A DNA stretch of 64,000 bases from Candidatus Woesebacteria bacterium (GCA_963716475.1 OY970314.1:74479-138478); one strand, 5' to 3'; numbered from the stretch's first letter, positions 55,558 to 60,615 are shown. Notes: generated from the sequence alone by a model not told the origin. Made by a program: numbers and translations.

Positions 55558-57009
55558 ATGAAAATTGCTTTCTGTTATCCTCCATTCACAAAAAATGGAC
55601 GCTATCCTAACCTGCCTCAAAATCGCCAATTTATCTATGAGGCTTCAAATGAGGTAAAAATCTACCCCGTGGTTCTTGCAACAGCAGCTACATGGTTAAA
55701 AAATTTAGGCCACGAAGTTCTTTGGCTGGACGGAGTGACAAGGCGTTTAAAAATGACCGAATTTAATTCGAAGCTAAATAAGTTTAAACCGGATATAGTT
55801 ATATTGGAGTGCAAAGCCCCGATCATGAATAAAATTTGGAACTTTATTAATAAAAATAAATTTCCAAAATCAGTTATATTGGGAGATCATGTAAGTTTTT
55901 TTCCTGAGGAGTCATTTAAAAAGTCCAAGGTAGATTATATTTTGACAGGTGGCGATTACGACTTTCTTATTAAAGATTTAGTGGAACACATTACTAAAGG
56001 TAAGCGATTAGGAAAAGGTGTTTGGTATAGGGAAGAAGGAAGAATAAAAAACACGGGGGAATTTGTTCCCAATAACGACCTTAATGAAGTACCTGTTATA
56101 GACAGAGAGCTTACAAGATGGAAGGACTATGGAGAGGCATACTTGTATCGCCCCTGCGCTTATATTATGTCAGGGAGAGGCTGCGGAATAGACAAGGAAA
56201 AATGTGGCATCTGCACTTTCTGTATATGGGAACACGCACTTTGGAAAAGGCAGGCAAGGCTTGCGATGCCGGAACAGGTTTTGAAAGAAGTAAAAAATCT
56301 TGCGAGCTTGGGTGTAAAAGAAATATTTGATGATTGCGAAAGCGGGGGGATGTGGAATATTGAATGGCTGAAAAGGTTTTATGAACTTCTCAAAAAGGAA
56401 AAACTTTTGGGTAAAGTTACGTTCTCCTCTAATGCAAGAGGAGACCAGCTTACCAAAGAAAAATGTAAACTTCTCAAAAAAATGAATTACAGACTACTTA
56501 AAGTGGGTTTGGAATCAGGTTCAAACAAAACTTTGGAACAAATTGCCAAAAGAGAAGTAATTGAAGATATCATTAAAGGTGTAAAAACGGCAAAAGATGC
56601 TGGTTTAAGAGTAATGCTTACGATAATGGTAGGTTATCCATGGGAGACGGAGGAAGAAGTGCAAATAACCTACGAGATCACCAAGAAACTGTTGCTTTAT
56701 AAAACCAGAGCGGGAGATTGTCTGCAATCGTCGGTAATTGTTTCCTACCCCGGGACGCCGCTTTGGAATATGGCAAAAACCAATAAATGGTTGAAAATTA
56801 ACCCTCTGGATTACGAGAAATACGATATGTCCAGGCCTATTCTTAAATCAAAATACAATCCCGTTAAATGGTGTCAAAAAATATGGTCGATTCAGAGTAG
56901 CCCATTGTTTATTGCTAAATCTGCAATTGGTATGAACAGCTTTCAGGACATGGCTCTTCTGGCACGAGGTGCAAAGTCTCTCGTAGGGCATATAATGGAT
57001 TTTTCATAA
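55558..57009 (+). CDS. B12-binding domain radical SAM protein (paralogue 1, atypical Cys cluster)
   Basis: 483 aa. N-terminal cobalamin-binding-like Rossmann segment. Cys cluster SGRGCGIDKEKCGICTFC. Paralogous to the next two rSAM genes. Confidence 0.65.
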   Translation: MKIAFCYPPFTKNGRYPNLPQNRQFIYEASNEVKIYPVVLATAATWLKNLGHEVLWLDGVTRRLKMTEFNSKLNKFKPDIVILECKAPIMNKIWNFINKNKFPKSVILGDHVSFFPEESFKKSKVDYILTGGDYDFLIKDLVEHITKGKRLGKGVWYREEGRIKNTGEFVPNNDLNEVPVIDRELTRWKDYGEAYLYRPCAYIMSGRGCGIDKEKCGICTFCIWEHALWKRQARLAMPEQVLKEVKNLASLGVKEIFDDCESGGMWNIEWLKRFYELLKKEKLLGKVTFSSNARGDQLTKEKCKLLKKMNYRLLKVGLESGSNKTLEQIAKREVIEDIIKGVKTAKDAGLRVMLTIMVGYPWETEEEVQITYEITKKLLLYKTRAGDCLQSSVIVSYPGTPLWNMAKTNKWLKINPLDYEKYDMSRPILKSKYNPVKWCQKIWSIQSSPLFIAKSAIGMNSFQDMALLARGAKSLVGHIMDFS

Positions 57010-57026
57010 GGTTTATTTTTAATTAA

Positions 57027-58399: not shown

Positions 58400-59185
58400 A
58401 TGAAATTGCAAAAAAAATTTTTGAAAATTTTTCTTCAAAAACAGCCTTCTTTCCAGGCACTTTTTAGATCTGTTGAGGCAGATGCTTTAGCTGATTACAC
58501 AATCATTGATCCTGTAGTGGATCTTGGTTGTGGAGATGGTTCGTTTACTGAAGCATTTTTGGGGAAGGGCAGAAAAATAATAGGAATAGACACAAATCCC
58601 AAGGATTTAAAAGAAGCGGAGAAAAGGGGAATATATTCTAATATCTACGAAACCTCAGGTAGCAACCTCCCTCAAAAGGATGAACAGGTGGGTACGGTAT
58701 TTGCAAATAGCGTTTTGGAACACATAAAAGATTTAGATCCGGTCCTAAAGGAGTCGTATAGGGTTTTAAAAAAGGGAGGGACATTTGTTTTTACGGCTCC
58801 TAGTGAAAAAAGATTAAAACTTTATTTAGTTTACCGTCTACTTTCATTTTTTAGACTAAATAGGCTAGCAACTGTATCAGCCAACCTTATGGATAAGATA
58901 TTTGTACATTATAATTGTTGGTCATCGAAAACATGGAGCAATAAGCTGCATAATATTGGATTTAGCAAGGTCAAATATCAGTATAGAGGGTCACCCAGGA
59001 TATCACTAATCAGTGATCTTCTTTTCATCTTTGCGCCCATAGGATATTTAGAGAAGAAATTATTTGGACGCTATTTAGGATGGAGAAAGTATATAAGCCT
59101 GGTAATATATTTGTTTCTAAAAGATTACAAAGATGCATTGATTGGTAATAACGGTTCTGTTATAGTCGTTGAGGCAACCAAATAA
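58400..59185 (+). CDS. class I SAM-dependent methyltransferase
   Basis: 261 aa. Motif I VVDLGCGDGSFTEAF, and VFANSVLEHIKDLD. Confidence 0.7.
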   Translation: MKLQKKFLKIFLQKQPSFQALFRSVEADALADYTIIDPVVDLGCGDGSFTEAFLGKGRKIIGIDTNPKDLKEAEKRGIYSNIYETSGSNLPQKDEQVGTVFANSVLEHIKDLDPVLKESYRVLKKGGTFVFTAPSEKRLKLYLVYRLLSFFRLNRLATVSANLMDKIFVHYNCWSSKTWSNKLHNIGFSKVKYQYRGSPRISLISDLLFIFAPIGYLEKKLFGRYLGWRKYISLVIYLFLKDYKDALIGNNGSVIVVEATK

Positions 59186-60615
59186 TGAAAATATTATTAA
59201 TAAACCCCCCGAGAGTAATGGGGTATCCCGTGGTAAGAGAGGAGCGCTTCGAACACAAAGATATGGGTTCAGTTTATCCTCCTCTTAGTCTACTTCAAAC
59301 AGCAGCCATATTGGAAAAAGAGAAATATACAGTTTCTTTAATAGACGCAAATGGATTTGATTTGAAACTGACGGAGGTAGGTCAAAAGATAAAGGAATTT
59401 GAGCCGGATATGGTACTTATTAGAATAGGATTCGATACTCAAAAAACAGACCTGAAAGTTGTCAGCTTAGCTAAGAAATTTGGTGCTGTAACAATTGTCA
59501 GAAACCATATCATTTCGAGGACTCCTAAAATTAAGCAGGAAATCCTTAAGAAATATACCGCAATTGATATTCTTTTAAACCAGGAACCTGAAGCGGTCAT
59601 GCCCCAGCTGGCAAGAGTGATAAAAAGTAAAGCGGATTTATCTCAAGTTAAGGGAATTACATTTAGACTTGGAAGAAAGTTGATAACAACAGAAGATGCT
59701 TCAATTTTGTACGATCTTAATAAACTGCCGTTTCCCGCATACCACCTTTTACCCAACATGAACGTATATTACTCGGGTACTTACGGACCGCCATTTAGCG
59801 TAATACTTTGTTCCAGGGGGTGTCCGTTTAATTGTGCTTTCTGTGCCTACGGTCGAATGCCTTACCGAGTGAGGAGCCCCATTAACATAGCAAATGAACT
59901 TGAAAGGTTGACGAAAGAAGTAAAGGTGCATGAGTTCTGTCTTTTTGATGACGTGGCGACTCTCGATCCTGCTAGGATGATTGAGATTTGTAAGGAAATA
60001 ATTTCCAGGAAAATCAAGATCAGATGGGCTGCGGGACTAAGGGCCCCAACCGTCACTTATAAAATGCTTAGCTGGATGAAGAAAGCCGGCTGTGACGAGA
60101 TAGCAATAGGAATGGAAAATGGTACGGATGAAATATTAACCGCCATGGATAAAAGGGTTACAGTGGAAGATATTAAAAAAGCATCGGAAGCGGCACACAA
60201 GGCCGGTGTAAGAATATATGCAATGTTCATTATTGGTCTTCCCGGAGAAACCAAAGAAAGTGTGGAAGCAACCATTAAGCTTGCAAAAGAGATTAAACCT
60301 TTCTACACGCAATTTATGTTTGCGACACCATTTCCAGATACCAGAATTTACGAATATTACAAAAAGAATAAGTTTCTTTTATCAGAAGACTGGAGTAAAT
60401 ATTTTCCATTAAATAAGGAACCGATTGTTAGAACTAGAGATTTGACCAAAGGAGACCTAATAAACTTAAAAAATAGAGCGTATAGAGAAACGCTATTTGA
60501 TTTTAAATCCTTACTCGGACAAATCAGATGGAATGATTGGAAATGGAATATTCGAGGTATAAAACAGGTTTCCAAAAGAATGTTGGCTGCCCTTAGTTTT
60601 GAGCCCCTACGCTAA
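59185..60615 (+). CDS. B12-binding domain radical SAM protein (paralogue 3)
   Basis: 476 aa. CSRGCPFNCAFCAYG. Architecture matches 57027-58397. Confidence 0.8.
   Translation: MKILLINPPRVMGYPVVREERFEHKDMGSVYPPLSLLQTAAILEKEKYTVSLIDANGFDLKLTEVGQKIKEFEPDMVLIRIGFDTQKTDLKVVSLAKKFGAVTIVRNHIISRTPKIKQEILKKYTAIDILLNQEPEAVMPQLARVIKSKADLSQVKGITFRLGRKLITTEDASILYDLNKLPFPAYHLLPNMNVYYSGTYGPPFSVILCSRGCPFNCAFCAYGRMPYRVRSPINIANELERLTKEVKVHEFCLFDDVATLDPARMIEICKEIISRKIKIRWAAGLRAPTVTYKMLSWMKKAGCDEIAIGMENGTDEILTAMDKRVTVEDIKKASEAAHKAGVRIYAMFIIGLPGETKESVEATIKLAKEIKPFYTQFMFATPFPDTRIYEYYKKNKFLLSEDWSKYFPLNKEPIVRTRDLTKGDLINLKNRAYRETLFDFKSLLGQIRWNDWKWNIRGIKQVSKRMLAALSFEPLR

Follow-up and report, generated by a model that had tools for sequence, protein, structure and literature searches.

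What do three neighbouring radical S-adenosylmethionine (SAM) enzymes, each with a Rossmann-like N-terminal domain, contribute to a bacterial operon for cell-surface glycoconjugate? The genes, here called rSAM1, rSAM2 and rSAM3, lie in a 64,000-nucleotide stretch of DNA from a Candidatus Woesebacteria bacterium (GCA_963716475.1 OY970314.1:74479-138478; "the window", with positions counted from its first letter). An earlier reading, made from the sequence alone, took all three for B12-binding enzymes and hence for C-methylases. This generalisation was not supported as it stood: the cobalamin-contact motifs are invariant only in the rSAM2 family, the nearest solved relative of rSAM2 and rSAM3 is AprD4, and the best curated family for all three is HpnJ. 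We propose instead a composite, to which we give an even chance: a cobalamin-type rSAM2 works beside a B12-independent rSAM3 and, probably, a B12-independent rSAM1, all of them tailoring the sugars of a surface-glycan operon. The modified sugars foreseen by the sequence-only reading fare better, glycan tailoring being likely, with C-methylation plausible for one enzyme only.

Four genes are densely packed on the plus strand, with gaps of 0-17 nt or overlapping ends: rSAM1 (55558-57009; 483 amino acids), rSAM2 (57027-58397; 456 amino acids), a class I SAM methyltransferase, MTb (58400-59185; 261 amino acids; Methyltransf_11, 73 bits), and rSAM3 (59185-60615; 476 amino acids), whose start codon is overlapped by the MTb stop codon. 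MTb matched no NCBIfam equivalog. The list of open reading frames (ORFs) reproduced the coordinates noted from sequence, and PF04055 and NCBIfam, together with AlphaFold2 for rSAM1 and rSAM3, confirmed that each of the three radical SAM ORFs joins a Rossmann-like N-domain to a radical SAM core. Pfam and ORF scans likewise bore out the interleaved methyltransferase, a second class I methyltransferase, a ferredoxin and the glycosylation locus around them.

All three proteins are members of the radical SAM superfamily and matched Radical_SAM (PF04055) at 62.9, 71.7 and 89.5 bits for rSAM1, rSAM2 and rSAM3, respectively (cutoff 29.5). The B12-binding profile (PF02310) was matched above its cutoff (32.1 bits) by rSAM2 (66.3 bits), below it by rSAM3 (20.6 bits) and not at all by rSAM1, hence the two profiles that the sequence-only reading had named as a check agreed with it throughout for PF04055 and in rSAM2 alone for PF02310. 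Among homologues, PF02310 is carried by 119 of the 120 best matches of rSAM2 and was found at E<=1e-3 in 47/64 members of the rSAM1 family and 39/63 members of the rSAM3 family. NCBIfam scores served as a proxy for placement among characterised class B enzymes. The top model for all three proteins was HpnJ (TIGR03471, cutoff 577.6 bits; 131, 214 and 190 bits for rSAM1, rSAM2 and rSAM3), which, like BchE (TIGR02026, cutoff 481 bits; 78, 184 and 176 bits; no pigment context), is a model of B12-domain radical SAM enzymes and aligns nearly end to end with each of them; the AprD4 model (NF033070, cutoff 500 bits) gave 39, 109 and 91 bits. Alignment of the rSAM1 and rSAM3 families by hhalign covered 453 columns, including the N-domain (probability 100%, E=1e-43). 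In the AlphaFold2 models of rSAM1 and rSAM3 (predicted local distance difference test, pLDDT, 93.9 and 94.1) the barrel is preceded by a Rossmann domain of five strands, and the best fold matches of these models in the PDB are AprD4, MgmA, OxsB, TsrM, CysS and TokK. The homology of all three N-domains to the B12-binding fold is solid, because the NCBIfam alignments, the PF02310 matches within the families, hhalign and the AlphaFold2/PDB matches all attest it.

The three genes had been called tandem paralogues. They are homologous neighbours, but at a pairwise identity of ~26% and as members of separate, widespread orthologous families, each gene having its own set of orthologues (45-67% identity) in other lineages. 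A recent tandem duplication is rejected on these two grounds; rSAM1, rSAM2 and rSAM3 are three distinct, anciently diverged subfamilies that were brought together in one operon.

A B12-binding fold does not by itself imply a bound cofactor: AprD4 has a Rossmann-like domain and yet does not bind cobalamin (PMC12931638). In the solved class B enzymes cobalamin is bound base-off, His-off by means of a GxS/TxX motif in the β3-α3 loop, one or two Gly residues of β4 that shape the dimethylbenzimidazole pocket, and a Gly-Glu pair at the start of α5, and their β1-α1 loop is ~11-14 residues long (PMC9204698). Tested against these motifs, the signatures that the sequence-only reading had placed in every N-domain were found in rSAM2, were absent from rSAM3 and proved ambiguous in rSAM1.

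rSAM2 is a canonical B12-binding-domain radical SAM enzyme. Its radical SAM cluster motif, CPFGCNFC (57603-57626, +), is a regular CX3CX2C. Upstream of it (57198-57362, +) stand the putative cobalamin contacts GISATT (57198-57215), GGTH (57282-57293) and EGE (57354-57362). All three elements, G58-x-S/T60-x-T62, G86-G87 and E110-G111-E112, align to the corresponding motifs of OxsB, TsrM, MgmA and CysS. Among 58 family members, G86, G87, H89, E110, G111 and E112 do not vary, and G58 and T63 hardly do. Canonical cobalamin binding by rSAM2 is thus supported at the level of its motifs, and rSAM2 is a plausible class B candidate, the sole convincing one of the three; it may be considered the one plausible cobalamin-dependent enzyme of the locus because every cobalamin-contact motif is kept. 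That its cobalamin would serve C-methylation is possible, at somewhat less than an even chance.

rSAM3 also has a regular CX3CX2C motif, CPFNCAFC (59821-59844, +), in agreement with the canonical clusters claimed for these two genes. Its N-domain is Rossmann-like with a remodelled cobalamin pocket. Where GxS, GG and GE are expected, rSAM3 has I-x-R80, R106-N and E134-P-E, so that none of the three motifs is present; in the alignment to OxsB, the invariant R80 falls on Ser184, the invariant R106 on the β4 Gly, and P-E replaces GE. The β1-α1 loop is ~27 residues long, conserved and furnished with invariant polar residues, versus 11-14 residues in cobalamin enzymes (PMC9204698). The top fold match of its AlphaFold2 model is AprD4, with a template modelling (TM) score of 0.75-0.79. 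As judged from these residues, canonical cobalamin binding by rSAM3 is contradicted.

rSAM1 comes from a large and uncharacterised family whose cluster motif departs from the canonical one; its own copy reads CGIDKEKCGICTFC (56182-56223, +). The sequence-only reading was right that the cluster is unusual, but the middle Cys that it counted, C216, is lineage-specific and not conserved. The motif is CX9CX2C, formed by C209, C219 and C222, which stay unchanged whether 18 or 64 members are aligned; the family motif is CX8-10CX2C, the spacer between the first and second Cys measuring 8-10 residues with one longer member. In this homologue, P0120, an insertion of ~17 residues separates the first two Cys residues, and the loop tolerates large changes in length. 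CXnCX2C cluster variants have been documented in the radical SAM superfamily (PMC9477430). Besides the three cluster ligands, C200, C303 and C439 are nearly invariant (>=90%) in the family. Among the candidates scored, 2,918 proteins belong to the family at E<=1e-5, and orthologues at least 50% identical to rSAM1 occur, by label, in Nanoarchaeota, Woesearchaeota, Methanosarcinales, Hodarchaeales (Asgard), Chloroflexi, Actinomycetota, Poribacteria and others, so that the family spans both the candidate phyla radiation (CPR) and DPANN.

An atypical Cys motif could also mark a decayed, non-functional copy. The Radical_SAM match of rSAM1 begins only at profile position 10, past the cluster loop, and the window member lacks a PF02310 match, as decay would have it. 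Against this, the ORF is intact, identities of at least 50% extend from bacteria to archaea, the family alignment has ~60 invariant columns, C209, C219 and C222 among them, the fold is predicted with confidence (pLDDT 93.9), and one 92%-identical and one identical copy exist on other contigs. Decay is extremely improbable. The pseudogene that the sequence-only reading had named as a possible refutation is rejected on conservation, the variant motif being invariant over a large bacterial-archaeal family.

The equivalents of the cobalamin-contact motifs in rSAM1 (55804-55962, +) are LECKAP (E84, K86, P88), ILGDHV (G109, D110, H111) and TGGDYD (G131, G132, D133, D135). These residues are invariant in the family and unlike GxS/TxX, GG and GE: ExKxP stands in place of GxSxX, and GGDYD in place of GEGE, while G109-D110 keeps a single Gly, as OxsB does. 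The β3 region aligned to no solved cobalamin enzyme. The top fold matches of the model are MgmA, AprD4, TsrM and OxsB. Predicted cobalamin binding by rSAM1 is ambiguous because this one Gly is kept, as in OxsB.

The glycan context was followed in other genomes. Relatives of rSAM1 were scanned in one genome per species, which gave 104 loci, of which 80 were kept, all from metagenome-assembled genomes (MAGs) or single-cell genomes. They come from Patescibacteria, FCPU426, Spirochaetes, Chloroflexi, Goldbacteria, Firestonebacteria, Woese- and Nanoarchaeota, Methanophagales and others. Forty-nine loci are well flanked (at least 3 kb on each side), and in 32 of these a glycan gene, defined as a GT2b, GT2a or GT4 glycosyltransferase, an epimerase or an LPG_synthase_TM-like gene, lies within 7 kb of rSAM1. 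The commonest neighbour across phyla is GT2b (23/49 well-flanked loci; 26/80 of all), and an epimerase is adjacent in 15/49. A second B12-like radical SAM gene occurs in 27/49, and an rSAM3 orthologue in 18/49, within 1.5 kb in 15 of the 49. When all neighbours were clustered, the ranking stayed the same, with the epimerase in 21 loci, and a SPASM radical SAM gene (10 loci) and a LysM-M23 peptidase gene (17 loci) joined the list. Large polytopic neighbours were sampled across phyla, and six of nine proved to be GT-C-type: STT3/AglB in two DPANN loci, one PTPS_related, one TMEM260-like and two PMT_2 + DUF2298 proteins. The link of rSAM1 with polyprenyl-phosphate/GT-C-dependent glycosylation is conserved across domains, as an association and not as a demonstrated function.

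CPR relatives keep the order rSAM1-(rSAM2)-MT-rSAM3-GT4-(rSAM)-GT2b, and the core rSAM1-MT-rSAM3 recurs in loci L003, L086 and L089. Genes similar to rSAM2 occur in the CPR contigs L091 and L092 among GtrA, small GT2 and GT-C or giant membrane protein genes. Two loci labelled as "uncultured Gammaproteobacteria" (L003) and "Nevskiaceae" (L004) contain a cluster of the CPR type, in which the two giant membrane proteins also have orthologues (up to 1192 bits); both are probably mis-binned Patescibacteria contigs.

The 17 LysM-M23 loci (L017, L019, L043, L053, L062, L082 and 11 others) have a gene with LysM and Peptidase_M23 domains directly upstream of rSAM1, often with a 4-nt overlap. They belong to Spirochaetes-, Goldbacteria- and FCPU426-type MAGs and usually contain an rSAM3 orthologue downstream and no recognised glycan gene. 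This adjacency hints at a cell-wall link.

We propose that the single-cluster ferredoxin encoded downstream would reduce the [4Fe-4S] cluster of each radical SAM enzyme, that SAM would be cleaved to a 5'-deoxyadenosyl radical, and that this radical would abstract a hydrogen from a sugar, either a nucleoside diphosphate (NDP)-sugar or one linked to polyprenyl phosphate, which would be altered in this way before GT-C transfer outside the cell. For rSAM2 the simplest chemistry would be C-methylation by methylcobalamin, although another cobalamin-assisted reaction would also fit. In rSAM3, and probably in rSAM1, the Rossmann-like domain would serve a role other than canonical cobalamin binding, and the chemistry would most likely be B12-independent, of the AprD4/HpnJ/Cds type (dehydration/deoxygenation, ring contraction, epimerisation or oxidation). 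The class I methyltransferases would add O- or N-methyl groups, and the GT-C enzymes would move the finished product across to the outside of the membrane. Taken in general, without regard to the cofactor of each enzyme, sugar tailoring is fairly probable. A bolder version, which we consider doubtful, is that rSAM1 and rSAM3 form an unrecognised cobalamin-independent pair, horizontally shared among CPR, DPANN, other archaea and several candidate phyla, that remodels sugars (ring contraction to a carbocycle, deoxygenation, C-C branching) on lipid- or nucleotide-linked intermediates of surface or protein glycosylation by GT-C/AglB, a class of pathway not known to include a radical SAM step.

Several observations weigh against the composite of a cobalamin-type rSAM2 with B12-independent partners. 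The motif test draws on about five solved structures and infers cobalamin binding rather than measuring it; OxsB itself has only one β4 Gly, so that a divergent pocket is no proof that cobalamin is absent, and rSAM1 keeps G109 and has a cobalamin enzyme, MgmA, as its top fold match. The fold search does not separate cobalamin binders from AprD4, as both stand at the top. The three families are uncharacterised as to substrate and product, and none of the three proteins reached an NCBIfam equivalog or subfamily cutoff. To supply rSAM2, a CPR genome of ~1 Mb would depend on the import of cobalamin, for which the window shows no capacity. In 11/49 of the well-flanked loci, rSAM1 is accompanied by the LysM-M23 peptidase and by no recognised glycan gene.

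If all three enzymes were cobalamin-dependent class B C-methyltransferases, they could place several C-methyl groups on unusual sugars. This would suit their domain order, which is that of class B in all three, and their family-level PF02310 homology; their top folds include the cobalamin methylases MgmA, TsrM, TokK and CysS, and GenK and MoeK5 are established cases of class B enzymes that C-methylate sugars (PMC9204698). However, GxS/TxX, GG and GE are kept together in rSAM2 only, rSAM3 has invariant Arg residues at the Ser and Gly positions, the best solved match of both rSAM2 and rSAM3 is AprD4, which is no cobalamin enzyme, and the best curated families, HpnJ and BchE, are not methylases. 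Neither a B12 riboswitch nor a B12 transporter was found in the 64-kb window: Rfam returned two tRNAs only, without a cobalamin riboswitch, and the ORFs scanned within the window gave neither a Pfam domain for B12 handling nor an uptake gene. We consider three methylases quite unlikely. It is unlikely, too, that the substrate is no sugar and the glycosylation genes are mere neighbours. Such a substrate could be a lipid carrier or membrane lipid (as for HpnR/HpnP or the ladderane/GDGT enzymes, GDGT being glycerol dialkyl glycerol tetraether), a protein or peptide (as for MgmA), or the cell wall. This explanation draws chiefly on the protein methylase MgmA as the top fold match of rSAM1 and on the LysM-M23 gene directly upstream of, and often overlapping, rSAM1 in 17 loci; the lipid-type models TIGR04072 and HpnR are among the scoring NCBIfam models, and polyprenyl and undecaprenyl synthase genes lie within the window. 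Yet the cross-phylum association is with GT2b, GT2a, GT4, epimerase and GT-C genes, the radical SAM genes are packed tightly between glycosyltransferases, and no adjacent precursor-peptide-like or lipid-synthesis gene was found. The composite reading, with rSAM2 as its only cobalamin enzyme, remains the one that we prefer.

On the plus strand, a single packed operon for cell-surface glycoconjugate runs from ~43.1 kb (43082) to past the end of the window, in a genome that is probably of Patescibacteria (CPR). Its products comprise glycosyltransferases (a GtrB-like GT2, a membrane GT2 and GT4s), GT-C-like membrane proteins of very large size, nucleotide-sugar enzymes, a ferredoxin and the two class I methyltransferases. 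All features given below for the operon lie on this strand. Its upstream part (43082-49794) comprises a GtrB/DPM-like GT2 (243 amino acids), a 446-amino-acid membrane protein, an NAD epimerase/dehydratase, a GT4, an unassigned protein of 536 amino acids and the second class I methyltransferase, MTa (48922-49794). Directly upstream of rSAM1 (49791-55557) come genes for two large polytopic membrane proteins, 999 and 927 amino acids in length. The first matches PTPS_related (42 bits), and both are probably GT-C-type transferases; their orthologues adjoin rSAM1 in loci L002-L004, L036 and L086-L089.

Downstream of rSAM3, GT4b (60620-61699, the start being taken from the L001 gene call) is a GT4 glycosyltransferase with Glycos_transf_1 and Glyco_trans_1_4 domains. 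GT2b (61696-62826) is a GT2-like glycosyltransferase with a hydrophobic C-terminal half, which gave only weak, sub-threshold GT2 and MftF-like matches and no sequence match in the PDB. The single-cluster ferredoxin (62823-63008; 61 amino acids; Fer4_13, 60 bits) keeps its position in L001, L087 and L088 and is likely the electron donor for the radical SAM clusters. The last gene, an NTP-transferase/GHMP-kinase fusion cut by the window end (63083-64000), opens an NDP-heptose-type supply block. In L001 an SIS gene comes after the fusion, which has 573 amino acids with NTP_transferase and GHMP_kinases domains; in L087 the genes behind the fusion are HAD, Hydrolase_3 and epimerase. On the contigs of 82-85% identical relatives, the operon continues with an SIS isomerase, an HAD phosphatase, a Hydrolase_3 protein and an epimerase, and the fusion together with these four makes up an NDP-heptose-type supply route. 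L087 and L088 come from relatives whose rSAM3 and rSAM2 share 85% and 82% identity with the window copies. Just beyond the operon, both L087 (19604-20293, minus strand) and L088 (18016-18705) encode an FNR-like flavoprotein with FAD_binding_6 and NAD_binding_1 domains, a possible ferredoxin reductase; the window stops short of this gene.

Elsewhere in the window, a polyprenyl synthetase gene (10637-11611, -) and a long (425 amino acids) undecaprenyl-diphosphate-synthase-like gene (11564-12841, +) are divergent, their ORFs overlapping by ~48 nt, and this pair is relevant to the supply of lipid carrier. Three genes for giant proteins of 1295, 3724 and 2086 amino acids (15395-19282, 20438-31612 and 35013-41273) combine N-terminal HTH_28/HTH_32/HTH_23 domains of the transposase type with a GT2 domain, an unusual fusion seen three times in 26 kb; the largest also contains Laminin_G_3. 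Between these genes, 31625-33550 encodes a TMEM260-like/PMT_2 protein with C-terminal TPR repeats, a GT-C resembling protein O-mannosyltransferases. In another genome, contig L092 (13068-14460) encodes a DUF4430 protein and a DUF6580 membrane protein after three B12-domain radical SAM genes and GtrA; the two DUF proteins may be a cobalamin-scavenging pair, DUF4430 being the domain at the C-terminus of transcobalamin-type B12 binders (PMC4350170). The pair was dropped as evidence for the window organism, as no homologue turned up in the window or in the other loci.

It is routine to annotate radical SAM proteins that carry a B12-like domain as B12-dependent and to presume that they are methylases. 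In the present operon this label holds for one of the three genes, is doubtful for another and lacks support for the last. The rSAM1 family, strongly conserved from ultra-small bacteria to archaea and tracking glycosyltransferases and GT-C/AglB, is a candidate for new sugar chemistry on uncultivated episymbionts, which probably attach to their hosts by way of surface glycans. The locus also raises the question of whether a CPR genome of ~1 Mb scavenges cobalamin for a single tailoring step. The superfamily has very many uncharacterised members, and the interest of these three is mainly for specialists in radical SAM enzymes and in CPR/DPANN organisms.

Of the known systems, the solved enzyme closest in sequence to rSAM2 (1e-26) and rSAM3 (1e-18) is AprD4, the radical SAM 1,2-diol dehydratase of apramycin biosynthesis (PDB code: 6FD2). 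AprD4 is similar in size, joins a Rossmann-like N-domain to a radical SAM barrel and acts on a sugar. The identity, however, is 16-20%, the sequence match covers the barrel and the C-terminus but not the N-domain, and rSAM2 keeps the cobalamin motifs, which AprD4 does not. A partner reductase similar to AprD3 was not identified, no search having been aimed at one; the operon contains genes of the epimerase/dehydratase family. HpnJ, the radical SAM enzyme of the hopanoid cyclitol ether, aligned over nearly its full length to all three proteins, with scores of 131-214 bits versus a cutoff of 578. It is a proposed sugar ring-contraction enzyme and no methylase, which acts after the GT2 HpnI on a lipid-linked sugar head group by a mechanism that is undemonstrated (PMC13459092). 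The HpnI step upstream of it is analogous to the GT2 neighbourhood described here; the hopanoid genes shc, hpnH, hpnI and hpnK were not found among the window ORFs scanned. The archaeal calditol synthase Cds is grouped with HpnJ by description, not by direct comparison.

MgmA/QCMT (PDB code: 9CCB), OxsB, TsrM, TokK and CysS share domain order and fold with the three proteins at 14-18% identity. Their contact motifs and short β1-α1 loop are common to rSAM2, whereas rSAM1 and rSAM3 diverge, and the CX9CX2C of rSAM1 differs from the CX3CX2C of the solved class B enzymes. The substrates of the latter (protein Gln, a nucleoside, Trp, a carbapenem, a thioester) are unrelated to the glycan context found here. 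The class B sugar C-methyltransferases GenK, GenD1 and MoeK5, compared by description only, are the precedent for the idea of the sequence-only reading, the cobalamin-dependent methylation of unactivated sugar carbons (PMC9204698, PMC12931638), but they belong to actinobacterial antibiotic pathways and not to surface-glycan operons. Our literature search found neither cobalamin-dependent C-methylation of glycans in surface polysaccharides nor a description of radical SAM enzymes in AglB/N-glycosylation, GT-C or Gtr-type pathways.

In the operon and at its related loci, as in the three-component GtrA/GtrB/GT-C and the Arn-type periplasmic systems, a small GT2 is found together with very large GT-C enzymes and with membrane proteins, GtrA-like or other, although no GtrA gene was found in the 64-kb window. 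We know of no GtrA/GtrB/GT-C or Arn-type system that includes radical SAM tailoring enzymes. ArnD provides the precedent for modifying a lipid-linked sugar before its transfer. Set beside these systems, rSAM1, rSAM2 and rSAM3 are uncharacterised subfamilies of a known kind, that of radical SAM enzymes carrying a B12-like domain, and several enzymes of this kind have sugars as their substrates.

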